Origin: Candidatus Saccharimonadota bacterium
GTDB taxonomy: Bacteria; Patescibacteriota; Saccharimonadia; Saccharimonadales; JAXHNE01
Assembly: GCA_034520885.1 (NCBI GenBank)
Contig: JAXHNE010000005.1
Location: forward strand, 77,748 to 141,747
Reading direction: 5' to 3'
Length of the DNA: 64,000 nt
Shown here piece by piece: positions 9,216 to 33,958 of the stretch. Every line of letters starts with the position of its first letter. Position 1 is the first letter of the stretch. Made by a program: the position numbers and the translations under genes. The notes under the pieces were generated by a model. That model had not been told where the DNA came from and made no database searches. It saw only the letters and a program-made list of their open reading frames with translations.

Positions 9216-9433
9216 TATCTTTTTGGTTCGGCAAAGAGATAACAAGAAGCCGACAGGCGGCTCCTAAATCGTGACTGGCCGCCACCTCAGGCAAGCAGCG
9301 TGTCCTTTGCGGGAACGACCCTAAAGGGCTCGGCCTTGGCTGCTTTATCTAAAGCAGGCAGCCAAAACTGTCCTCGGACAACGATTCGCTGCTTGCCCGG
9401 GCGTCGCCCAATCAGTTTGAGGAGAGCCTGGAA
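9216..9433 (+). ncRNA. unclassified structured RNA, copy A
   Basis: Shares identical cores with copy B. Four helices differ between the copies by fully compensatory changes (for example 9291-9300 pairs with 9387-9396). No ORF. Confidence 0.65.
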
Positions 9434-9439
9434 CCCCTC

Positions 9440-9650
9440 GCCACCTACTTTTTGCTTATTACTTTCCCCATCTTCCATCTTCTATTTTCCAGCCGCTGCA
9501 TTCAATCCCCATTCCCCAATCTTCCATCTGTCATAACTATCACCTATCATCTATTAATCCTCATCTATCATCTATTGCGACGAAGTCGCTTGCCATCTTC
9601 CAACTACCATCTTCCACCTTCCAGAAACCCCCTAGCCCCTAAACTCTACT
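9440..9650 (-). repeat. inverted copy of the rpoD-type tract (C-poor strand = minus)
   Basis: The reverse complement matches 16860-17045 (GGAAGATGGCAAGCGAC..GTCGCAAT.GATGATAG). Confidence 0.8.
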
Positions 9651-10575: not shown

Positions 10576-10723
10576 TATACTGCTACTAATGAAAAAGACA
10601 GAGAAGCTACCTGAGAAGTTGTTTTGGGTTGATTTGGGAATGGCCCCGCACCAAACTCTTGAAGCTACACAATCTGATTGCTTACTGCTCCGCTCAGGAG
10701 TTGGTGCGGGGCAGGCCGGGTAA
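10576..10723 (+). other. second orn promoter/5' copy, opening a 44-codon uORF through hairpin E1
   Basis: TATACT at 10576-10581, then 7 nt, then ATG 10589 giving MKKTEKLPEKLFWVDLGMA.... Stop at 10721-10723, 4 nt before the real ATG. Confidence 0.65.
10644..10711 (+). repeat. MITE-like hairpin element E1
   Basis: CCCCGCACCAAACTC...GGAGTTGGTGCGGGG terminal inverted repeats. Sits 16 nt upstream of the orn ATG. Confidence 0.8.
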
Positions 10724-10727
10724 AGCT

Positions 10728-11282
10728 ATGAAAAAGAATAACAAGCTACCAACTAAACTTTTTTGGGTAGATTTAGAAATGACTGGTTTGGATCCGGAAA
10801 AGGATGTCATCCTGGAAGTTGCCGCGGAAATCACCGACTTTAAGTTCAAAACCCTGGAAAGCTATGAGGCCATGGTGCGGGGCGGTAATCGCAAAACGGT
10901 GGTGCAGCGCATGCAGGCCAACACCTGGTGGGCGGATTTTCCGGGTAATCGCGATACTTTCGTTGACGGGCTAGAGGAAGCCACGCCGCTGGGAGTGGTA
11001 GAGGACGAACTCATTGATTTACTCAAAAAACACTTCGGCAACGAACCGGCCATTTTAGCGGGTAACTCCATTCATTCCGACCGCGCATTCATTAAAAAGT
11101 GGTGGCCGTCGCTTGACCTGAAATTACATTACCGCATGCTAGATGTCAGTAGTTTTAAGGTGTTGATGCAGGGCAAGTACGGGGAAGAGTTCGAAAAAGA
11201 CAACCCCCACCGCGCTTACGACGACATCCAAGCCTCGATTGCCGAATTAGAACACTACATTGAATTTATGAAAACTAGCTAA
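10728..11282 (+). CDS. orn: oligoribonuclease (DEDDh exonuclease)
   Basis: FWVDLEMTGLD, GNSIHSDRAF and HRAYDDIQASI. The ORF-track start at 10629 reads through hairpin element E1 and is not the real start. Confidence 0.9.
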   Translation: MKKNNKLPTKLFWVDLEMTGLDPEKDVILEVAAEITDFKFKTLESYEAMVRGGNRKTVVQRMQANTWWADFPGNRDTFVDGLEEATPLGVVEDELIDLLKKHFGNEPAILAGNSIHSDRAFIKKWWPSLDLKLHYRMLDVSSFKVLMQGKYGEEFEKDNPHRAYDDIQASIAELEHYIEFMKTS

Positions 11283-12669: not shown

Positions 12670-12887
12670 AATCTTTTGAGTCGGCAAAAGATTGCAACAA
12701 AAGCCGACAGGCGGCTGCCCGGAACCGGACTGCCCGCAGAACATAAAACGAGTGTGCTTCCTGCGGGAACGACCCTAAAGGGCTCGGCCACGCTGCTTTA
12801 TCTAAAGCAGGCAGCTTAGGCTGTCCTCAAGCAATGACTCACTCGTTTTATGCCCTCCGAACAATCTGTCCGGGCAGAGCCTGGAAG
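12670..12887 (+). ncRNA. unclassified structured RNA, copy B
   Basis: Same cores as copy A. The long-range helix 12742-12754/12840-12852 replaces the copy A helix with an unrelated but complementary sequence. Confidence 0.65.
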
Positions 12888-12989
12888 CCAGGTGAACAAC
12901 TGCTCCAAAGCAGTTGTAACTATATAAAAAACAAGCTTGAAGCTTGTTTACTGGTTTTACCCGGATCACCCAATAAGTTTAAGCAGAGC

Positions 12990-13209
12990 TTGGAATTCCT
13001 TTGTCATTATTTCTCATCTTCATTCTTCAATTCTCATTCCCCGATCTGCCAACTACCACCCACTAACTTCCACCCCCCTAATCCCTATAACCTAGCCACT
13101 AAAACCTAAAACCTGCTTTTAACCTATGAACTATGAACCCAGAACTCTTTCCTCAATCCTCAATCCCCGATCTCCTATCTACTACCTACCAACTACGAAC
13201 TTCTAACTC
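12990..13209 (-). repeat. C-poor (minus-strand) word tract 3' of gene 13210-13800
   Basis: The plus strand is almost G-free, with CCATC, CTAAC and CTACC words. Confidence 0.7.
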
Positions 13210-15688: not shown

Positions 15689-16828
15689 GTGCCAAAGAGT
15701 AAAAAGACCAAGAAGGTAAAGGTCGAACAGGCCGAAGCCGCCTTGCAACAAATCAAGGACGAGCTGTACAAAAAAGCCAAAAAAGAAGGGACGATTGACC
15801 AAAAAGAGATTTTTCAGGTTATCCCTGATACACCGGCCAACGCCGAAATCTTGGACGAATTGTATACCCAGCTGGCCGATAAGAACATCGACATCACCAG
15901 CGGCAAAGAGAAGGACATCAAAGACGGCTGGGAAGACGGCGAAGACGACGAGGAAGATATCGACGAAAAGTCCGCCAAAAAGGCTTACTTGGATGATATT
16001 TCCGATGACTCCGTCCGGCTTTACTTGCGTGAAATCGGAAAAATTCCACTGCTTACGGCCGAGGAAGAGCTGGAGTTGGCCAATAAAGTGGTCGCCGGCG
16101 ATAAACGCGCCAAAGACCAAATGGCGGAAGCTAACATGCGCTTGGTGGTGTCTATCGCCAAACGCTACGTCGGGCGTGGACTCGACCTTCTGGACTTGAT
16201 TCAAGAAGGAAATACCGGTTTGCTACGCGCCGTGGAGAAGTTCGACCCCGACAAGGGCTTTAAGTTTTCCACCTACGCCACCTGGTGGATTCGCCAGGCC
16301 ATTACCCGTGCCATTGCCGACCAGGCGCGCACCATTCGTATTCCGGTGCACATGGTGGAAACCATCAACAAACTGCTGCGTACCCAACGCCGCTTGACGC
16401 AGGAAATGAACCGCGAACCGACCAACGAAGAGATCGCCAAGGCCATGGATATCGAGGTGGAAAAAGTCGTACACATCATGAAGATCAAGCAGGACATTTC
16501 CTCACTCGACGCCAGCGTGCGTGATGACGAGGAAGATTCCGTGCTCGGTGACTTCATTGAAGACGAAGACACTGTCACGCCGGAAGAATCCGCCACCGGC
16601 CAGCTGTTGAAGGAACACGTCAAAGATATGCTAGGCAGCTTGACCGAGCGCGAGCAAAAGATCTTAAAACTGCGCTTTGGCTTAGAAGACGGCAAAAGCC
16701 ATACGCTGGAAGAAGTCGGGCAGGAATTCAGCGTCACGCGTGAGCGTATTCGCCAAATCGAAGCCAAGGCACTGACCAAGCTGCGCAAACATCGTGATAG
16801 TAAGCGTTTGCATGACTACATCAAATAG
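15689..16828 (+). CDS. rpoD: primary RNA polymerase sigma factor
   Basis: [18 protein letters not shown] and [30 protein letters not shown], plus region 4 [25 protein letters not shown] start follows GAGGAGG. Confidence 0.97.
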
Positions 16829-16830
16829 AC

Positions 16831-17033
16831 GTTAGAGGGTAGAAGGTGGAAGTTGGAAGATGGTAGGTGGAAGGTGGAAGATGGCAAGCGACTTTGTCGC
16901 AATGGATGATAGGTGAGGATTAATAGGTAATAGGTGGTATGTGGGTGGAAGATGGAATTTGGAAGATAGAAGATGGAAGATGGTAGGTGGTAGGTGGAAG
17001 TTTGGGAAAAAGTAATAAGTAATAAGTAATAAG
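16831..17033 (+). repeat. C-free G/A/T word tract 3' of rpoD
   Basis: No C at 16831-16884 or at 16901-17033. Built from GGAAGATGG, GGTAGGTGG and GTAATAAGT words. The only interruption is the GCGAC-TTT-GTCGC hairpin. Confidence 0.85.
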
Positions 17034-17139
17034 CAAAAAGTAGAGTGTACTTCTACTCGACCCCCCTAACCTCCAACGTCTAACCTCGAGCCTCAAACAT
17101 CTAACTTCCACTCTGATCCTATGATATGATTTTAAGCGA

Positions 17140-24584: not shown

Positions 24585-25198
24585 CCAACTGGAAACAGGT
24601 GACAGTTGATACTTACAATAAGTCTGCAAAAGAACTGGCTGAGTATTTTCGAGGTATTGGTTCGCGGGTAAAAGACATAGAAAAGGCCTTGGAGCTTGCT
24701 GGAAACACCAACAACCCAAAAGTTCTTGAAATTGGGTGCGGTGATGGGCGTGATGCTAAAGAAATCGTCAAGCGGACTAAAAGTTACTTAGGCTTCGATA
24801 TTTCAGAAGAGCTCATCAAGCTTGCTAAAGTTCACGCACCAGGAGGTAAGTTTGTTGTTGCGGACGCAGTACGTTTTAATTATGGAAAAGACAACTACGA
24901 CGTTGTTTTTGCGTTTGCCTCATTACTGCACCTCAACAAAAGTGAGGTAGGTGATGTTTTGCAAAAGGTTCATGTCGCACTAAAAGAGAATGGCGTGTTT
25001 TACGTGTCACTTAAACTAGCGAATACCTACGAGGAAAAAGTAAAGGACGATAAGTTTGGAAAGCGGATGTTTTACTTCTACAACCCGCAAGTCATCAAAG
25101 AGCTAGCCGGAGATGCGTATGAGGTAGTCGATGAAGACGGCGGTTTTGTGACAGTCGGCAACACAAAGTGGTTTGAGATGGCGCTGCGTAAAAGATGA
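24581..25198 (+). CDS. class I SAM-dependent methyltransferase
   Basis: Motif I is VLEIGCGDGRD. Overlaps the toxin stop by 4 nt. Confidence 0.82.
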   Translation: MTNWKQVTVDTYNKSAKELAEYFRGIGSRVKDIEKALELAGNTNNPKVLEIGCGDGRDAKEIVKRTKSYLGFDISEELIKLAKVHAPGGKFVVADAVRFNYGKDNYDVVFAFASLLHLNKSEVGDVLQKVHVALKENGVFYVSLKLANTYEEKVKDDKFGKRMFYFYNPQVIKELAGDAYEVVDEDGGFVTVGNTKWFEMALRKR

Positions 25199-25234
25199 CA
25201 GAGCATCTGGCACCTTATTGATACAATTAATCTA

Positions 25235-25636
25235 ATGAAGACGTTTCATATTGGCGTGAAGGCAATAATTGTTGACCAAGATAAAACCTTGCTACTCAAA
25301 ACCAACGAAGAGCGGGGCAGTAGGTGGGAGGTGCCCGGTGGCAGAATTGATGATAACGAATCGATCCCGGAGACTCTTAAGCGCGAGCTTGAAGAAGAAA
25401 TTCTAAATATTCGCTCCATCGAAGTAAAAGAAATAGTGCACGTCCACCGCCTACAAAAAGACATAGAGGGCAGCATTAGCCTTACGCTGTTATTTTATGA
25501 AGTGACGGCAACTTTTGACGGTGCTATTGCCTTGAGCGACGAACACGTAGACTATAAGTGGTGCACAAGGGAAGAAGTAGCAGAATTCGTCCAACCGGAG
25601 TTAGCAGAAATCATTCAAAAGGCTTTTGATGAGTGA
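25235..25636 (+). CDS. Nudix hydrolase
   Basis: Nudix box GGRIDDNESIPETLKRELEEEI. Confidence 0.88.
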   Translation: MKTFHIGVKAIIVDQDKTLLLKTNEERGSRWEVPGGRIDDNESIPETLKRELEEEILNIRSIEVKEIVHVHRLQKDIEGSISLTLLFYEVTATFDGAIALSDEHVDYKWCTREEVAEFVQPELAEIIQKAFDE

Positions 25637-26141
25637 TATTGAATATTTTGATGTAGTTGATGAAAATGACCGGCCTAACGGTGAAAAAACTACGAAGGCC
25701 GAAGCTCACGAACATAGAATTATACATCGTTGCGCGGCGGTGTTCGTTTTTAATCAAAACGGTAACTTGTACGTGCAGGAACATCTAAAGCACAACAACA
25801 AGCTAGATCACACCGTCGGTGGTCATGTGTCGGCAGGCGAGGATTACGAAACGGCAGCTTACCGTGAAATGGCGGAGGAAATCGGCTTGAGTGGCGTTAA
25901 ACTACAAGAAGTAGCAACTGGCTATTATTCTGACGAAGGAGTGTATATCCATATGTTCGGGATTTTTAAATGTACTGCTCCCAAAGCGTGGGAATTTACC
26001 CCCAACGATGAAGTCGAAGTTATCTACCCGATGCCGGTTGAGAAAATCGTAAAACAAATGCAAAGTCACCCCGAAAAATTCACCGGCGGGTTCATAAATA
26101 CCATGAAAAAATACTTGGGAGCAACGAGCGAGAAATCCTAG
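25626..26141 (+). CDS. Nudix hydrolase
   Basis: Nudix box GGHVSAGEDYETAAYREMAEEIGL. Confidence 0.85.
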   Translation: MMSDIEYFDVVDENDRPNGEKTTKAEAHEHRIIHRCAAVFVFNQNGNLYVQEHLKHNNKLDHTVGGHVSAGEDYETAAYREMAEEIGLSGVKLQEVATGYYSDEGVYIHMFGIFKCTAPKAWEFTPNDEVEVIYPMPVEKIVKQMQSHPEKFTGGFINTMKKYLGATSEKS

Positions 26142-27046
26142 CGGCGTTGTTCGCGGGCGGCGGCTTTGTCTAGCTGATTGAGTCGTTTGTGGATTTTATC
26201 GCGGGCTTCTTTGGCTTCGTCACTTAAGTCCTCAATTTCGTCGATATGCCACTTTTCGAATGTAGGGTCGACCACATTCTTTTTGAACTTAGTGAAGTTA
26301 TAAATACCGGTTTTTTGGATGGCTCGGGCGTGGTCACGAAAACCGGGTATGCCGGTTCCGGGCATATCGAAGCCCCGAAGTTGCCGCTCGGCGGCGATCA
26401 TCATGGCCGAAGGATCCAGAGCGAACGCGGCTCGCGCTAAGTCACGGTAAAAGATGTGATGCAACTGTTCGTCACCAGCCACGTGGGACATGACATCGAA
26501 CCCACCGAATTCGTCGCCAAGGATGCGGCCAGTACCGCTATGCGCGACGCGAGTGGCAAGTTCTTGCAAAGAAGTGTATACAAGCATGTCCGTTAGGTCG
26601 TCCGGCTGAGGAACTTCGCCGCTTTTGATTTGTACGCTCCGGGCTTTGTCCAGCTTTAGCGGGTCAATCGCTCGAGTCACGTGTATCCATTCCCGAATAA
26701 CGGTCGCGTGGTTGTCTTCTTCGCTCGTCCACTGGCGCGCCCATTCGCTCCACGGATGCTCACGGTTCGGCGGGCTCCAGCGATGGATAGTTTCGTAATA
26801 ATACGGAAGATTGTCTTCCGTTAGTAGATTCACGAAGAGCGCGCTTCGCACGCCATCCGACAAATCGTATTCGTCCGGCCGCCACTCATCGCCGGACTGG
26901 TAATCGCGGCCATGAGAGTAGGGTACGAGCTCGTACGGATGCCATTCGCCCTTCTTTTCTTTGCTTTCCAGGTGTCTGTCGTACAAACGTTCTACTTCCG
27001 GTGTAAGGTCTTCTAATAGCTTGATGTTGGGATCAATTTCCGTCAT
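26138..27046 (-). CDS. soluble diiron acyl-ACP desaturase family protein
   Basis: Two E-x-x-H diiron motifs (SEEDNHATVI and GDEQLHHIF), plus TSLQELATRV. Confidence 0.85.
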   Translation of the reverse strand: MTEIDPNIKLLEDLTPEVERLYDRHLESKEKKGEWHPYELVPYSHGRDYQSGDEWRPDEYDLSDGVRSALFVNLLTEDNLPYYYETIHRWSPPNREHPWSEWARQWTSEEDNHATVIREWIHVTRAIDPLKLDKARSVQIKSGEVPQPDDLTDMLVYTSLQELATRVAHSGTGRILGDEFGGFDVMSHVAGDEQLHHIFYRDLARAAFALDPSAMMIAAERQLRGFDMPGTGIPGFRDHARAIQKTGIYNFTKFKKNVVDPTFEKWHIDEIEDLSDEAKEARDKIHKRLNQLDKAAAREQRR

Positions 27047-27139
27047 AAGAACTCCTTATTTGTATCTATGGTACAACAAGTCAATGTCAAGCGTAAGGGT
27101 GTTGCAATAATTAGGTAATTATGCTATAATTACAATGTT

Positions 27140-27697
27140 ATGAGATACATTTTAGGTGTTTTGGCCACTATATTTATTCTGATTGCCGTTATTTTTTGGG
27201 CATTGAGTGGCGGTCCTTCAGAGGTCGTAGAAGAAGATGACGCTGCAAAGCTTTCTACTTATGCGGACTCGTCTGCAAAAGTAAGCTACGAAGTAAGAGG
27301 TGAAATTGTTGCTAACGAAGAGCACCAATCTATTCGCTTTACGATTGATCGAAATCAGCGTGTATTTGAGGTATTTGATGGATATCAGAAAAAGGTAATC
27401 AAGAAAAAGACATTTTCAAATAACTCCAAAGCTTATGAGGAATTTATATATGCGCTCGACCGAGCAGGTTTTATTAACCAGCAAGAGGCCGATTTTGATA
27501 CCGAAAAGGGTGTGTGTCCTGAAGGAAATGTCATGGTATATAAACTTGCCGACCAAGGCGAAGATATTTCACGATTATGGTCAGGATCGTGCGATGACGA
27601 AGCCGGAACTTTCGGCGGCGATGACGACGACGTGGAAGATTTGTTCGAAGCCCAGATCCCCGATTACCGGGATATCGCCCGCGACGTTAATCTGTAA
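27140..27697 (+). CDS. hypothetical membrane-anchored protein
   Basis: 185 aa with an N-terminal TM segment and an acidic C-terminus. Confidence 0.5.
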   Translation: MRYILGVLATIFILIAVIFWALSGGPSEVVEEDDAAKLSTYADSSAKVSYEVRGEIVANEEHQSIRFTIDRNQRVFEVFDGYQKKVIKKKTFSNNSKAYEEFIYALDRAGFINQQEADFDTEKGVCPEGNVMVYKLADQGEDISRLWSGSCDDEAGTFGGDDDDVEDLFEAQIPDYRDIARDVNL

Positions 27698-27716
27698 GTC
27701 AGCTTACTCGGGCTGC

Positions 27717-27852
27717 TACAATATCAGCAATGATTAAAGCCATTATTTTTGACCCGCGCACCAAAATCTTTGCGCTCCACAATCTGATTACGGACTATTG
27801 CGCCCGGGATTTGGTGCGGGGCAAGTCTTTTTGGGGTAAGTATGGCAATTAA
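27717..27852 (+). other. decoy HAD start (TACAAT-7nt-ATG) opening a 40-codon uORF through hairpin E2
   Basis: ATGATTAAAGCCATTATTTTTGAC at 27730 compares with the real ATGGCAATTAAAGCCATTATTTTTGAT at 27842. The uORF stop at 27850-27852 overlaps the real start region. Confidence 0.65.
27753..27821 (+). repeat. MITE-like hairpin element E2 (diverged family member)
   Basis: CCCGCGCACCAAAATC...GATTTGGTGCGGGG, with the shared internal CACAATCTGATT. Sits 20 nt upstream of the HAD ATG. Confidence 0.75.
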
Positions 27853-28408
27853 AGCCATTATTTTTGATTTCTTCGGGGTGATTTGTTCCGACCAGTACTG
27901 GAATTACGTTAAGGCCGACCGCCAATCGGCAGGCACGTTTCGGGAGTATGCCGAGGAAGTGAACCTGGGCGAAATGTCGTGGTCCGATTTCGTAGCTAAG
28001 ATCGCGCAGGCCACGCACACCTCGGTTGACGAAGTAAAGGAGCTATATCGCTCCGAACGCATTAATCCGCGTATGGCGGAATGGATCGCCGACCTGCACG
28101 GTCGCTACAAAACCGGGCTGATTACCAACGCGCATCACGAATTCATTGACCCGCTCCTGAAAAGAAGCCACCTGGCCAAACACCTGGATAGCGTGGTCGT
28201 GTCTTCTCGGCTGGGAGTAATAAAACCCGATCCGGCGATTTTTGAAGCCGCCTTGGAGGAGCTTGGCTGCGCGCCGGAGGAAGTGATATTCATGGATGAT
28301 CTGGATCGGCACGTGGAGGCCGCGCGGAAGGTTGGCATTCAAGCCTTCCGATTCGACGATTTTACGCGGGCCAAACAACGTGTAGACCGACTTTTAAATC
28401 ACACGTGA
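27842..28408 (+). CDS. HAD-superfamily hydrolase
   Basis: N-terminal IKAIIFDFFGVI, with LITNA and FMDDLDRHV blocks. Confidence 0.82.
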   Translation: MAIKAIIFDFFGVICSDQYWNYVKADRQSAGTFREYAEEVNLGEMSWSDFVAKIAQATHTSVDEVKELYRSERINPRMAEWIADLHGRYKTGLITNAHHEFIDPLLKRSHLAKHLDSVVVSSRLGVIKPDPAIFEAALEELGCAPEEVIFMDDLDRHVEAARKVGIQAFRFDDFTRAKQRVDRLLNHT

Positions 28409-28513
28409 TATAAATAAAACTAAAATGTTTTCACACGGGAAAAGTCTATTGACTTTCACGGATTTAAGAGTGTAATGAGGGTATCTTTTCAAAATAAAAG
28501 AAAGGAAAACAAA

Positions 28514-28717
28514 ATGAATTTATACGAAATTGACGAGCCCGGTCGAGCACCAATGATTATTGGCGGTAGTGCGTTCGGGGTAGAAGACGCAAGGTATCTT
28601 CAGGAATCTATCAGAGAAGATGGACGGCGTCCCGAAGAAACCGTCGTAGGTATCGATACGCAAACGCTCGAACGGACACTTCCTGTCGCTGATCTTGCGA
28701 TCACACAATACGAATAA
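28514..28717 (+). CDS. hypothetical small protein
   Basis: 67 aa from ATG 28514, after AAAGGAAAAC. Confidence 0.4.
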   Translation: MNLYEIDEPGRAPMIIGGSAFGVEDARYLQESIREDGRRPEETVVGIDTQTLERTLPVADLAITQYE

Positions 28718-28940
28718 ATAAGCGCTTTTTTGTTTGACACATTTCTTTGAGCGTATGCAAATGCATACGAAGTGTGCCGGCCAAAGCGGCGCTGTCCACG
28801 ATGATCGTAATGCCGCGATCGTTCATTTTTACCAAGCAGTCGACACCGAACTCTTTGCGCACGAAGGATTTGATAATCTGAATTTCTTTGGGTTCGTGGA
28901 ATTCGCGGTTTCCTAAAATGTCAGCGACGGAATTACTCAT
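28701..28940 (-). CDS. DUF721/DciA-like small protein
   Basis: 79 aa. ITIIVDSAALAGTLRMHLHTLKE resembles the DUF721 core. Call is tentative. Confidence 0.45.
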   Translation of the reverse strand: MSNSVADILGNREFHEPKEIQIIKSFVRKEFGVDCLVKMNDRGITIIVDSAALAGTLRMHLHTLKEMCQTKKRLFIRIV

Positions 28941-29016
28941 ACCCCTCAGTGTAGCAGTGGATCAAACGGGGGAGAAGCGGGTACAATGGGAGCATGCCAG
29001 AACTACCGGAGGCTTG

Positions 29017-29082
29017 CCCCGCACCAACTCCTGAGCGGAGCAGTAAGCAATCAGATTGTGGAGCTTCAAGAGTTTGGTGCGG
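29017..29082 (-). repeat. MITE-like hairpin element E3a (inverted relative to E1, 1 mismatch in the core)
   Basis: CCCCGCACCAACTCC...GAGTTTGGTGCGG. Confidence 0.8.
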
Positions 29083-29102
29083 AATACATAGGGAGAATAA
29101 GT

Positions 29103-29219
29103 ATGCCAGAACTACCGGAGGCTTGCCCCGCACCAACTCCTGAGCGGAGCAGTAAGCAATCAGATTGTGGAGCTTCAAGAGTTTGGTGCGGAATACATAG
29201 GGAGAATAAGTATGCCTGA
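29103..29219 (+). other. decoy mutM start opening a 38-codon uORF through hairpin E3b
   Basis: MPELPEACPAPTPERSS.... The TGA at 29217-29219 overlaps the real ATG at 29212 (ATGCCTGA). Confidence 0.65.
29126..29191 (-). repeat. MITE-like hairpin element E3b
   Basis: Identical to E3a, 109 bp downstream. Sits 20 nt upstream of the mutM ATG. Confidence 0.8.
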
Positions 29220-30126
29220 ATTACCAGAGGTCGAAACGGTCAAAAGAGGCCTGGATCAGCTCATCGTTGGTAAGATTGTCGCTGACGTTACTTCCGACTG
29301 GGTAAAATCCTTTCCGAACGCCCAAACTGACGTAAACCAATTTTTAATGGGTGCAACCGTGCAGAAGTTACGCCGCCGTGGCAAGGCGTTGATTATTGAT
29401 CTGAATTCAAAGTATTCGCTCGTCATTCACTTGAAAATGACCGGACAGTTGGTTTTTGTTGGCCAACAAAAAAATGAGCAAAAAGCAAAAAGCAAAAAGC
29501 AAAAAGAGGTAAGATTTGGCGCGGGACATCCGACGGATAGCTTGGTAGGTGAACTGCCCGATAAGTCCACTCGCGTAACATTCACTTTTAAGGATAAATC
29601 TCGATTATTTTTTAACGATCAACGCAAATTTGGCTGGGTCAGACTACTCCCGACTATAGAAATTGAGAACCTGGACTTTATGAAAAAGCTAGGCCCAGAA
29701 CCATTGGAAAATGACTTTACGAACACAAAATTTGTTCAACGGCTACAACGCCGCAAAAACAGTGGTATAAAAGCCGTTTTATTGGATCAAACCGTGGTCG
29801 CGGGCGTTGGAAATATCTACGCGGACGAGTCGTTGTACGCCGCCAAAATCCATCCGGCAACGTTGGTAAAAGACGTTCCCCGGAACGAGTTAAAGGTACT
29901 TTTTAAAGAGCTTATAAAAGTTTTGCGCCGCGCCATAGAAAGTGGTGGCAGTACCGACAAAAACTACGTTGATGCCGAAGGTAAAAAGGGAAGTTATTTA
30001 ACATTCGCTAGGGTTTTCCGCCGGGAAGGCAAGGCGTGTGAACGCTGTGGTGATATCATCATAAAGACGAAAGTCGCCGGACGCGGCACCCACACGTGCC
30101 CGACTTGCCAAAGGAGCCACTCATGA
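29212..30126 (+). CDS. mutM: formamidopyrimidine-DNA glycosylase
   Basis: MPELPEVETVKRGL N-terminus, an H2TH region, and a zinc finger CERCG...CPTCQ. The real start is the third ATGCC(A/T)GAA copy. Confidence 0.95.
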   Translation: MPELPEVETVKRGLDQLIVGKIVADVTSDWVKSFPNAQTDVNQFLMGATVQKLRRRGKALIIDLNSKYSLVIHLKMTGQLVFVGQQKNEQKAKSKKQKEVRFGAGHPTDSLVGELPDKSTRVTFTFKDKSRLFFNDQRKFGWVRLLPTIEIENLDFMKKLGPEPLENDFTNTKFVQRLQRRKNSGIKAVLLDQTVVAGVGNIYADESLYAAKIHPATLVKDVPRNELKVLFKELIKVLRRAIESGGSTDKNYVDAEGKKGSYLTFARVFRREGKACERCGDIIIKTKVAGRGTHTCPTCQRSHS

Positions 30127-31732: not shown

Positions 31733-33784
31733 ATGGAAAATCAAAAAACAGAAGTAATCCAAACCATAAAAGACGCACAAAACGTGTTGGTTACCGTCAG
31801 CAAGGATCCTTCGATCGACCAACTGGCCGCGGCCATCGGTATGACGCTGATACTTAATAAAATGGGCAAACACGGCACGGCGGTGTTCAGCGGCACGGCG
31901 CCATCCACGTTAGAGTTTCTAAAACCGGAAGAAACACTGGAGAAGAACACCGACAGCCTACGGGATTTTATTATTTCGCTGGACAAATCCAAGGCCGACA
32001 AGCTGCGCTATAAAGTGGAAGACCAGCACGTAAAAATCTTCATTACCCCTTATCGTACGACGATTGGCGAGCAAGATTTGGTGTTTAGCCACGGTGATTT
32101 TAACGTTGACGTGGTATTGGCGCTCGGCGTGCACCAGCAAAACGAACTCGACCAGGCTATCACCGCTCACGGGCGGATTTTGCACGACGCCAAGATCGTG
32201 TCCGTAAATGCCGGCAAACCGGGCGAGCTCGGCGGAATTAACTTGAACGAACAAAACGTTAGTAGCTTGTCGGAAGTAATGGCCGACATGAGCTTGGAGA
32301 TTCAAAAAGACGTTTTTGATCAGCAGATCGCTACGGCGCTTCTAACGGGAATCGTGGCCGAGACCGAGCGGTTCAGTAACGAAAAAACCAAACCGGAAAC
32401 CATGTCGATTAGCGCCAAACTCATGGCCGCCGGTGCCAATCAGCAGTTAGTCGCTACTAAACTACAAGTCCAACCGGAGCCTTCGGAACCGACTCCACAA
32501 CAGGGGCAAGCCGAGCAAGCGGAAGGTGAAGGTAAAAATCCGAACGAATCGGCGGACTCCATTAAGCACGAGGACGGGTCTTTACAAATAAAGCACACCG
32601 AACCTCCAAAAAAGCAGCAAACGAGTGAACAATCACAAAATGCGGGCGACCCCCCGCAAAGCGACAATGAAGTCCACGTCGACGAAGAAGGCAATTTCAA
32701 ATCCGCGCACATGGACGAACTACCGCCCATAAAAACCGAAAATAAAGCCGGTACTTTGGAAAAGGAAGCCGGTACCAACGAACCTCCGAAAAACGACAAC
32801 GAGCCACTTAAACGCAAGCGCATGATTTTGGATCCGCCGTCCAGCGGCAGTACGCTCACTGCCAGTGGTAAGGACGAGCCGGAAGGCACCAGTGACCCGC
32901 TAAGCAAACCGGTAAACGAAGGGCCGATGCTCACGCACGACGATCAAAAGTCCCGGCCGCCGGAATCAGGTAATACGAATGATCAATCCACGCCACCAAA
33001 GGCGGCGGAGGCGCCCGCGGAAAACGCTCCGGCTCTCCCCAAAGCGGATAATCAAACACCGGGTAACTCTCCGACACCCGCTTCGAGCACGCCCAAGGAA
33101 CCCGAAGAAAACCCGAAAACGGCTCCGTCCGAGACATCGAAAGATACGTCAAAACAGCCGCTTAACGGAAACCAAACGCTTGATTCTTTGGAAAAACGCG
33201 TGGACAGCCCACACCAACACCAAACGGAGAAAAAAGCCCAAAGTCCGCCGGAACCACCGGCAACGAATAACCAACCTGGCGGCGGTGGTAAAGCCCCGGA
33301 TTCTTCGGATTCGGTCTCCGAAACGGCAAACCAGTCCGATACCGACAAAGCCGAAGCGCCGGATATCGGTCAATTGCAAAATGCCGTAGACAAAGCGCTG
33401 GCTAATTCCGGTGATCAAAAACCGCAGGAGCCAATTAAAGCCCTTAACGCCAACCCCGTGGATTTGGACTTAGGGCATGATGATCAGCAAAACGGCAATC
33501 AACCCGCCACCTCTGGCGATAATAGCGATGATGGCTACCTGGACGTCAATAAGTTGGACGAGCAAACCGGTCTGGAAAAGAGTTCATCCTCAGATCCGGC
33601 GCAACCCGAACAACCCCAAAACCAACAAAAACCGAAGTTTCCGCCGGATCCTAAACCCGCTCCGTCAACTGACGCCGCCTCGCCGGCTTCTTCGCCGCCG
33701 CCAGTACCGCCGCCGATGATGCCACCCAAGCAAGGTCAAGATGACAACGGCGACGATCTGAATTTGCCACCCGTACAGCGGTAG
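31733..33784 (+). CDS. NrnA/DHH-family-like protein with degenerate catalytic motifs, fused to a ~440-aa disordered tail
   Basis: The first ~240 aa align by eye to NrnA (ALLTGIVAETERFSN in place of TDTGxF; VSKDPSIDQLAAAIG in place of HxxPDGDxxGS). The rest is P/Q/E/S/N/K-rich. Confidence 0.6.
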   Translation: MENQKTEVIQTIKDAQNVLVTVSKDPSIDQLAAAIGMTLILNKMGKHGTAVFSGTAPSTLEFLKPEETLEKNTDSLRDFIISLDKSKADKLRYKVEDQHVKIFITPYRTTIGEQDLVFSHGDFNVDVVLALGVHQQNELDQAITAHGRILHDAKIVSVNAGKPGELGGINLNEQNVSSLSEVMADMSLEIQKDVFDQQIATALLTGIVAETERFSNEKTKPETMSISAKLMAAGANQQLVATKLQVQPEPSEPTPQQGQAEQAEGEGKNPNESADSIKHEDGSLQIKHTEPPKKQQTSEQSQNAGDPPQSDNEVHVDEEGNFKSAHMDELPPIKTENKAGTLEKEAGTNEPPKNDNEPLKRKRMILDPPSSGSTLTASGKDEPEGTSDPLSKPVNEGPMLTHDDQKSRPPESGNTNDQSTPPKAAEAPAENAPALPKADNQTPGNSPTPASSTPKEPEENPKTAPSETSKDTSKQPLNGNQTLDSLEKRVDSPHQHQTEKKAQSPPEPPATNNQPGGGGKAPDSSDSVSETANQSDTDKAEAPDIGQLQNAVDKALANSGDQKPQEPIKALNANPVDLDLGHDDQQNGNQPATSGDNSDDGYLDVNKLDEQTGLEKSSSSDPAQPEQPQNQQKPKFPPDPKPAPSTDAASPASSPPPVPPPMMPPKQGQDDNGDDLNLPPVQR

Positions 33785-33843
33785 TTGTTAGAAGTTAGAA
33801 GTTAGTTGTTAGAAGTTGGAAGTTAGAAGATGGAAGATAAGAT
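33780..33843 (+). repeat. C-free GTTAGAAG word tract 3' of the NrnA-like gene
   Basis: 64 nt without C, followed by the hairpin GAAGATA-AGATC-TATCTTC. Confidence 0.8.
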
Positions 33844-33958
33844 CTATCTTCTGACGTCTAGATTCTAACGTCTATTTAGTATGGTCGTGCAAGGAAAGTA
33901 CGCTACATTTACCAAGAGTTTTCAGTACTTGAATACTCGAGCTGGTACACTTTAGATT

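Follow-up and report, generated by a model that had tools for sequence, protein, structure and literature searches.

A 72-nt Palindromic Element of Candidatus Saccharibacteria, Probably Mobile, Found Inside Genes and Beside Duplicated Gene Starts

We analyzed a stretch of 64,000 nucleotides from a Candidatus Saccharimonadota bacterium (assembly GCA_034520885.1, contig JAXHNE010000005.1, positions 77,748 to 141,747; the whole stretch is termed the window), in which a hairpin, E2, stands between two starts of a gene for a HAD-family hydrolase. E2 is quite probably a copy of a non-autonomous palindromic mobile element of 72 nt, or 24 codons, that is specific to Saccharibacteria and resembles the Rickettsia palindromic elements (RPEs), with copies at the 5' ends of genes being rescued by a duplicated start. 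At the level of sequence comparison the element was shown to be an insertion, where a duplication and a tail restored an intact open reading frame (ORF) and the old promoter and start still lie upstream.

Organization of the HAD Locus

The HAD gene and the region upstream of it contain the following features.

27717..27722 (+): native -10 box of the HAD gene, TACAAT, an extended -10 (TGcTACAAT), from sequence
27730..27752 (+): decoy, the apparent ancestral start (ATG ATT AAA GCC ATT ATT TTT GA), from ortholog N-termini
27753..27825 (+): element copy E2, 72/73-nt core with a stem of ~18 bp and the loop CACAATCTGATT (covariance model, 87 bits, E = 5e-21)
27826..27841 (+): HAD tail TCTTTTTGGGGTAAGT, absent from empty sites
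27842..28408 (+): gene for the HAD-family hydrolase, derived start MAIKAIIFD (Pfam PF00702/PF13419)

A preliminary description of the locus had placed TACAAT at 27717, a decoy start 7 nt further on at 27730, a hairpin at 27753-27821, and the real start at 27842, and all of these positions were reproduced. The 7 nt between the -10 box and the decoy ATG (ATGATTAAAGCCATTATTTTTGA) are ATCAGCA, which is the layout of a leaderless promoter. The decoy opens an upstream open reading frame (uORF) of 40 codons (27730-27852), and its TAA stop was found at 27850-27852, inside the first codons of the real gene as had been described. The core of the element extends beyond the hairpin to 27825. The hairpin has an energy of -30.9 kcal/mol (z = -3.85), and none of 200 shuffled sequences was found to be equally good. 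Within the tail, a Shine-Dalgarno (SD)-like GGGG lies 5 nt 5' of the new ATG and GGGGTAAGT occupies 27833-27841; the real start ATGGCAATTAAAGCC, annotated as ATGGCAATTAAAGCCATTATTTTTGAT, begins at 27842.

A perfect direct repeat of 20 nt, ATTAAAGCCATTATTTTTGA, was found at 27733-27752 and again at 27848-27867. Because this repeat is perfect, the HAD copy is best read as a recent insertion and not as an old conserved leader. The insertion is also included in a separately assembled Logan contig (L001), which is identical to window positions 24842-29023. The HAD protein (P0001) is 100% identical to an NCBI protein encoded on a 145-kb contig of a Saccharibacteria metagenome-assembled genome (MAG), and the same applies to the Orn protein.

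Recurrence of the Layout at Other Gene Starts

The window has insertions at three loci, orn, HAD, and mutM, all of them leaderless genes that were entered 19-55 nt downstream of their start. Each of these 5' copies adds a duplicate of the first codons, a tail of 12-18 nt with an SD-like motif, and a new ATG. The orn and mutM loci are organized as follows.

10576..10643 (+): orn -10 box TATACT (10576-10581), decoy start at 10589 and 55 nt of apparently ancestral 5' coding sequence MKKTEKLPEKLFWVDLGM, from sequence and orthologs
10644..10715 (+): element copy E1, 72 nt (covariance model, 99.5 bits)
10716..11282 (+): orn tail CCGGGTAAAGCT, followed by the oligoribonuclease gene with its real ATG at 10728 (MKKNNKLPTKLFWVDLEM...) (Pfam RNase_T)
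28982..29211 (+): mutM -10 box TACAAT (28982-28987) and two 109-nt units (28994-29102 and 29103-29211) (TRF, period 109, 2.2 copies)
29212..30126 (+): MutM gene (formamidopyrimidine-DNA glycosylase), real start ATGCCTGAATTACCAGAGG (Pfam)

Each mutM unit consists of the decoy ATGCCAGAACTACCGGAGG, a reversed element (29013-29084 and 29122-29193), and the tail TACATAGGGAGAATAAGT, and there are no mismatches between the two units. These E3 copies are oriented opposite to mutM, a point absent from the preliminary description. The motif CACAATCTGATT had been called conserved and E2 diverged at many positions. Both statements hold: the motif has four exact matches in the window, all within element copies (10668, 27778, 29049, and 29158), and E2 is identical to E1 and to E3 at 56 of the 72 positions in each case, compared to 68 of 72 between E1 and E3. 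With only 78% identity to E1 and E3, and although its insertion appears young, E2 would belong to another subfamily, or come from another source, than the orn and mutM copies.

The fourth sequenced case was found in ychF of another Saccharibacteria genome (L012), which reads TTAGAAT-N6-ATGTCTTTATCTATTGGAATTGTTGGG, a reversed element, ATGCCGGAGACCAAGC, and ATGAGCTTGAGTATCGGCATCGTGGGG... The layout of decoy, hairpin, and overlapping uORF, which had been noted as repeated, was thereby found in four sequenced genes. Counted for single units, the uORFs of these genes contain 38-44 codons and end at -7, +9, +6, and +2 relative to the real ATG; in ychF the uORF and the real start overlap as ATGA. The element is read in a different frame by the uORF of each gene. 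The four real starts, from two genomes, share the sequence GGRG-N2-7-AAGY(T)ATG. The source of the tails was sought elsewhere in the window and none was found.

A profile of the in-frame peptide gave 20 matches among 1.84 billion representative proteins, many of them small ORFs and one of them (P0181) the uORF product of the window's own orn locus. In P0176 the N-terminus of Saccharibacteria PolA (MAERRKKLAIIDGKSVFY) runs into the element peptide, after which there is a stop, and P0188 has a PrgI-like N-terminus, MAVYKVI (cf. P0040), followed by the element. Together with polA and the PrgI-like gene, both seen as peptides only, the decoy layout is probably present in at least six genes. Two further small ORFs from Logan contigs, P0177 and P0183, have similar short peptides on both sides of the element peptide (MVNGQW...MVNECINGQC and MFNVQC...MFNECSNKQC), and these may represent a decoy-type copy read in one frame.

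Since the window derives from a MAG, the decoy-hairpin-start structures could in principle be chimeric joins created during assembly or binning. The identity of the two 109-nt units and the break of the Logan contig inside the mutM repeat would fit this. However, the HAD insertion was reproduced in the separately assembled contig, the same architecture was found in the unrelated GTDB genome that carries ychF, and databases already list the product of the orn uORF, P0181, among called proteins. Chimeras would moreover not be expected to have such orderly reading frames and uORF stops, and we consider an artifact to be extremely unlikely.

The Element Family and Its In-Frame Copies

Nine distinct DNA copies were identified in nine genes, with one more found later in MnmA (L019), and further copies were found at the peptide level. 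The strict element pattern gave no matches in viral contigs or in GTDB species representatives. Its only match in metagenomes was a single contig (L002), where the element lies in frame within the RNase HII gene. A relaxed pattern gave two true matches in 185,579 GTDB species, both in Saccharibacteria (L012 and L014). A third match, in a Sandaracinobacter MAG (L013), was discarded as a chance match. A covariance model built from the family copies found only the four known copies in the window when run with filters off, and in 126 kb of related loci only copies already identified. As the preliminary description had supposed, this is a true family, with further members in other Saccharibacteria genomes. 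As judged from these searches, the family is found only in Candidatus Saccharibacteria.

Three to four of the six reading frames of the element are open. We searched the open-frame translations against 5.8 billion proteins and met the element as ~24 extra in-frame residues (HQKLDAPQSDYRLLRSGFGAGQA, or APHQNLSGAVGNRIVEHQVFGAG from the other strand) in unrelated Saccharibacteria hosts: glutamate dehydrogenase (GDH), MurB, TatD, ComEC, MnmA, an RluA-like synthase, and a PrgI-like protein. In MurB the inserts were found at two different positions in two orthologs. Alignment of GDH, MnmA, and MurB with insert-free orthologs gave an insert of exactly 24 residues with no duplication of the flanking residues. 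At the DNA level, the filled MnmA site reads AAC AAG / 72 nt / TCAAGC and the empty site AAC AAG CTAAGT. From the intact ORFs, the in-frame inserts are predicted to be translated. The element was found in both orientations relative to the host gene. Most copies lie inside coding sequence, and those identified by DNA search were intragenic and not intergenic. Four copies, those in GDH, L014, L002, and MnmA, are directly preceded on the 5' side by the motif RCTTRA. The HAD copy matches it in part, and the TatD, ComEC, and Orn copies lack it.

Orthologous inserts in the GDH, PrgI-like, and RluA-like pairs were 83-92% conserved, compared to 57-83% for the rest of the protein. The family would be older than one event, because orthologous in-frame copies are common to proteins that are only 57-83% identical. 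This agrees in part with the preliminary description, where the divergence of E2 was taken to mean an old family and not a single recent event: the family appears old, the HAD copy itself recent.

The MnmA of L019 (P0048; 857-930, compared with L008 18576) carries, besides the element, a second insert of ~15 residues (KIATRNSKIAANRIPRY), which is absent from the L008 ortholog.

Pairing of the Stem

The 18-pair stem was found to be paired in 96.3% of cells over nine distinct copies. Six stem pairs were altered on both sides, for instance C-G/A-U, A-U/U-A, and C-G/A-U in GDH. The alignment was equalled by no column shuffle out of 500 on any of five measures, and pairing fell to 31-53% when the 3' partner was slid by 1-3 columns. 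The preliminary description had pointed to a stem kept paired by a compensatory change, AACTC/GAGTT in E1 and AAATC/GATTT in E2. This change is real and corresponds to alignment pair 18-62, where E1 and E3 carry C-G and seven copies, E2 among them, carry A-T. [quoted passage not shown] As the element occurs in both orientations to transcription, the pairing constraint is therefore a property of the element (as DNA, single-stranded DNA, or RNA of either strand) and not of an mRNA leader.

This bears on whether the hairpin and decoy uORF instead form a dedicated cis-regulatory leader, a conserved module for translational control that might be processed by RNase III, as the description of a 5' RNA layout had implied. 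The hairpin is stable and its covariation real, the uORF ends at the real start in 4/4 sequenced cases, and an SD-like motif lies just 3' of the hairpin, all of which would suit such a module. However, the element is reversed at mutM and ychF, lies in frame within at least eight unrelated proteins, and is mostly found in frame within coding sequences. Related genomes lack it at their HAD, MutM, and Orn loci, and a different element frame is read in the uORF of each gene. The host genes are functionally unrelated. No Rfam match was found for the element: no Rfam family reached the gathering score in the window, and only noise was obtained at E ≤ 10 on 27700-27880. A position, strand, and peptide conserved among orthologous leaders, as expected of a leader peptide or uORF, was not found, the element being absent from the orthologs and present on both strands. 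A regulatory leader is very unlikely and, as the primary identity of E2, largely refuted; a regulatory side effect may have been domesticated.

E2 was also considered as an intrinsic terminator and rejected: the T-run begins 6 nt after the stem, none is present in E1 or E3, and the terminator scan made no call. A diversity-generating retroelement, a retron, attC, CRISPR, and the attachment site of an integrative element were rejected because the element is 72 nt long, has in-frame copies, forms no arrays, and is accompanied by a duplicate specific to each gene.

Empty Sites and Leaderless Ancestry

Gene order was found to be kept and the element to be lacking at the HAD and MutM loci of L003, L004, and L006 and at the Orn loci of L015, L017, and L018. 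Genes at the element-free loci start 6-10 nt after a -10 box, except in L017, which has an SD sequence. The HAD orthologous loci of L003, L004, and L006 have the layout -10-N6-8-ATG. The HAD orthologs P0002-P0009 begin with MIKA[VI][VI]FDFFGV, which is the decoy version, vs MAIKAIIFD at the annotated start in the window. The closest relative of Orn begins with MSKTEKLPEKLFWVDLEM, to be compared with MKKTEKLPEKLFWVDLGM for the decoy and MKKNNKLPTKLFWVDLEM for the real start.

The leaderless layout was established by direct inspection of 27 gene starts, and a scan for the sigma-70 consensus did not flag the -10-only promoters. Besides the three loci, about 11 genes of the window have a -10 box (TATACT, TACACT, TACAAT, or similar) that ends 6-9 nt before the start.

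Such gene starts: 1311, 7490, 9726(-), 11880, 13913, 17140, 17762, 20118, 25235, 27140, 33959

First genes of this genome seem to be transcribed by default as leaderless mRNAs. Because the orthologs start with the decoy version and the leaderless layout is the usual one, the decoy is read as the ancestral leaderless start, and all that was added to it (element, tail, new ATG, and repeated first codons) as derived. The start called real in the preliminary description would be the derived one. Plain insertion would presumably sever a catalytic N-terminus, which we take to comprise the nucleophile Asp of HAD, the N-terminal Pro (Pro2) of MutM, and the DxE of Orn.

Proposed Mechanism and Origin of the Duplicated Start

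We suggest that the element enters genes in either orientation. Because three to four of the six element frames are open, most survivors would be translated in frame and would add 24 residues where the protein tolerates them. Where a copy lies at a 5' end, transcription would still begin at the old leaderless promoter, with the mRNA starting at the decoy ATG. Ribosomes could then start at the decoy, translate the uORF of 38-44 codons through the hairpin, thereby opening it, and terminate within a few bases of the new ATG. The real protein would be made by re-initiation or by fresh ribosomes at the new SD, and the arrangement of uORF and gene leads us to infer translational coupling between them. 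The hairpin would be kept paired as the element's own property and not for regulation of HAD. For the duplication we favor a target duplication of variable length coupled to insertion, arising from a staggered break or flap and followed by selection. Selection may have acted as a sieve: within genes only in-frame copies free of duplication would survive, and at 5' ends only copies that restore a start.

Several observations weigh against this explanation. Copy number is low, with one copy per 8-21 kb locus elsewhere and 2/185,579 GTDB species representatives, and recent mobility is deduced from presence and absence between orthologs. Neither a transposase nor an autonomous partner was identified in the 64 kb of the genome in view, where a test for a cognate insertion sequence (IS) found no further element ends beyond the four copies. 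The exact 109-nt tandem at mutM may be mis-assembled in copy number, as the Logan contig ends inside the first unit. There is no target-site duplication of fixed length; it is lacking at in-frame copies and varies over 19-55 nt at 5' copies, and one mechanism is not obviously enough for both. Finally, the differences between decoy and real start are mostly synonymous, a pattern not expected from simple duplication and later neutral decay of the decoy.

The last point is central to the main rival for the duplication step, in which the second gene start (tail, ATG, and first codons) was imported by recombination with a diverged Saccharibacteria allele. In one variant, homology-facilitated illegitimate recombination followed DNA uptake and the hairpin marks the illegitimate junction. 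The mutM starts differ at three positions, 3/3 synonymous. In ychF, 7/9 codons differ, including TCT vs AGC/AGT for serine, and all seven changes are synonymous; the GC content at third codon positions is opposite in the two starts (1/8 for the decoy, 7/8 for the real one), compared to 0.55 for the whole gene. The orn decoy and real start differ at 14/54 nt, a divergence as large as that between species, and the real Orn N-terminus (PTK) resembles more distant lineages. Import would further be in agreement with E2 being as far from E1 and E3 as copies of other genomes are, and with the clean element end always facing the decoy and the variable filler lying on the other side. On the other hand, the duplicate at HAD matches at 20/20 positions, and a donor allele was not found. 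Import also leaves unexplained that the junction coincides exactly with the element end in every case and that the event recurred in at least four to six genes. At orn, both copies have CTA as codon 7 and AAA as codon 2 (AAA is present in L018 as well); these shared states suggest a common local origin and favor local duplication. Changes of the real orn copy cluster at nt 10-33, and those particular to the decoy comprise three synonymous changes and one E-to-G. Altogether, we regard import of an allele as rather unlikely and retain duplication coupled to insertion as the favored origin.

Another possibility, to which we give the same small weight as to import, is that the 5' end of the target, or that of its leaderless transcript, is copied by the very mechanism of insertion, which also supplies a portable SD-ATG module (GGRG-N2-7-AAGY-ATG in four genes of two genomes). 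Leaderless genes would thereby be converted to uORF-coupled, SD-led genes, and both N-terminal copies would be under purifying selection because both are used, whether by alternative starts, by reversible excision between the repeats, or by ribosome hopping. Synonymous-only divergence between two copies of a gene start could point to an unusual recombination or insertion mechanism.

Other Features of the Window

The proteins of the window include PolA, HolA, MutM, Orn, and a fatty-acid desaturase, and the DNA is thus cellular. A scan of the window for tRNA and tmRNA gave no match. Positions 36500-64000 form an AT-rich island with 33-41% GC vs ~50% in the rest of the window and contain small ORFs only; eight of these ORFs were tested and had no Pfam match. 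Within it, about 20 copies of a promoter-like repeat (TTGGTTATAGTTATTATACG ... AAAAAGGTTAC) are located at 42.4-50.4 kb, mostly upstream of minus-strand ORFs and often with a hairpin and T-run.

Two copies of a non-coding repeat of ~190 nt were found at 9246-9436 and 12700-12889, with perfectly conserved blocks (TGCGGGAACGACCCTAAAGGGCTCGGCC and GCTGCTTTATCTAAAGCAGGCAGC) between variable stretches. They had no Rfam match even at E ≤ 1 and may represent an undescribed structured RNA in two paralogous copies. Intergenic arrays with 7/14/21-nt periodicity (GGAAGAT / GTTAGAA type) are located at 9463-9623, 13020-13208, 16825-17042, and 33774-33850. The first two are in reverse complement, and the arrays adjoin the ~190-nt repeat and follow several genes.

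Outside the window, dnaK (HSP70) was called as three consecutive fragments in L009 (2316-3965), where frameshifts, assembly errors, or another insertion are possible.

Relation to Known Systems

The kind of element described here is known. In the libraries and literature searched, there was no precedent for the family, for its host phylum, or for a decoy start combined with a duplicated N-terminus and a new SD, and the recurrent outcome at 5' ends is apparently undescribed. Full-text literature searches found no published account of palindromic, MITE, or leaderless elements in Saccharibacteria or the candidate phyla radiation (CPR). By duplicating a start and adding an SD, with the old leaderless start left as a uORF, a compact genome would be able to survive a mobile insertion into an essential N-terminus, and to do so repeatedly. 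Practical effects of the copies are wrong start calls, spurious small ORFs such as P0181 in databases, and contig breaks in MAGs.

The gene starts resemble translational bypass, as in T4 gene 60 and the mitochondrial byps of Magnusiomyces, in having a mobile hairpin in a coding region between matching codons. The last duplicated codons are ATG/ATG, GAC/GAT, GAG/GAG, and GGG/GGG, a match that is trivial given the duplication. Bypass systems have a stop after the take-off codon and a gap of at most ~55 nt. In contrast, the gap is 109-139 nt at the element loci and no stop follows the take-off codon. The complete SD and ATG make bypass unnecessary, and the element loci do not show the full set of features of programmed bypass.

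IS200/IS605-derived hairpin elements, palindrome-associated transposable elements (PATEs), and repetitive extragenic palindromes (REPs) are likewise hairpin-based and insert without a target duplication, and RCTTRA beside four of our copies may correspond to the short motif that they prefer. They move by single-strand transposition by Y1 transposases, and the resemblance to our element is a lead only. RCTTRA is absent at TatD, ComEC, and Orn, and no TnpA or REP-associated tyrosine transposase (RAYT) was identified in the 64 kb in view. MITEs (Correia, ERIC, BOX, Nezha, and others) are similar in being small, non-autonomous, and dispersed, with hairpin-forming terminal inverted repeats, and can alter the expression of neighboring genes. 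Unlike MITEs, the element has no short fixed target-site duplication at in-frame copies, no partner IS was found in the 64 kb of the window, and the copies identified by DNA search are intragenic and not intergenic.

The closest behavior is that of the RPEs (Ogata et al., 2000), as far as these are summarized in the MITE review PMC10969869. Like our element, RPEs are short and palindromic, insert into protein-coding genes that are unrelated to one another, and are translated in frame, which gives the host protein a conserved additional peptide. The bacteria that carry them are in both cases host-dependent with reduced genomes, and no transposase is known for either. RPEs are there given as ~100-150 nt vs 72 nt for the element, the phylum differs (Patescibacteria/Saccharibacteria), and the copy number of the element is far lower. 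The 5'-end outcome of duplicated start, new SD, and uORF is not mentioned for RPEs in the review's summary. We call the element RPE-like by its behavior, and without claiming homology, since it was found in several unrelated genes and as in-frame inserts. Selfish palindromic DNA inside coding genes, known from Rickettsia, would thereby be extended to the ultra-small episymbiotic Saccharibacteria of the CPR.

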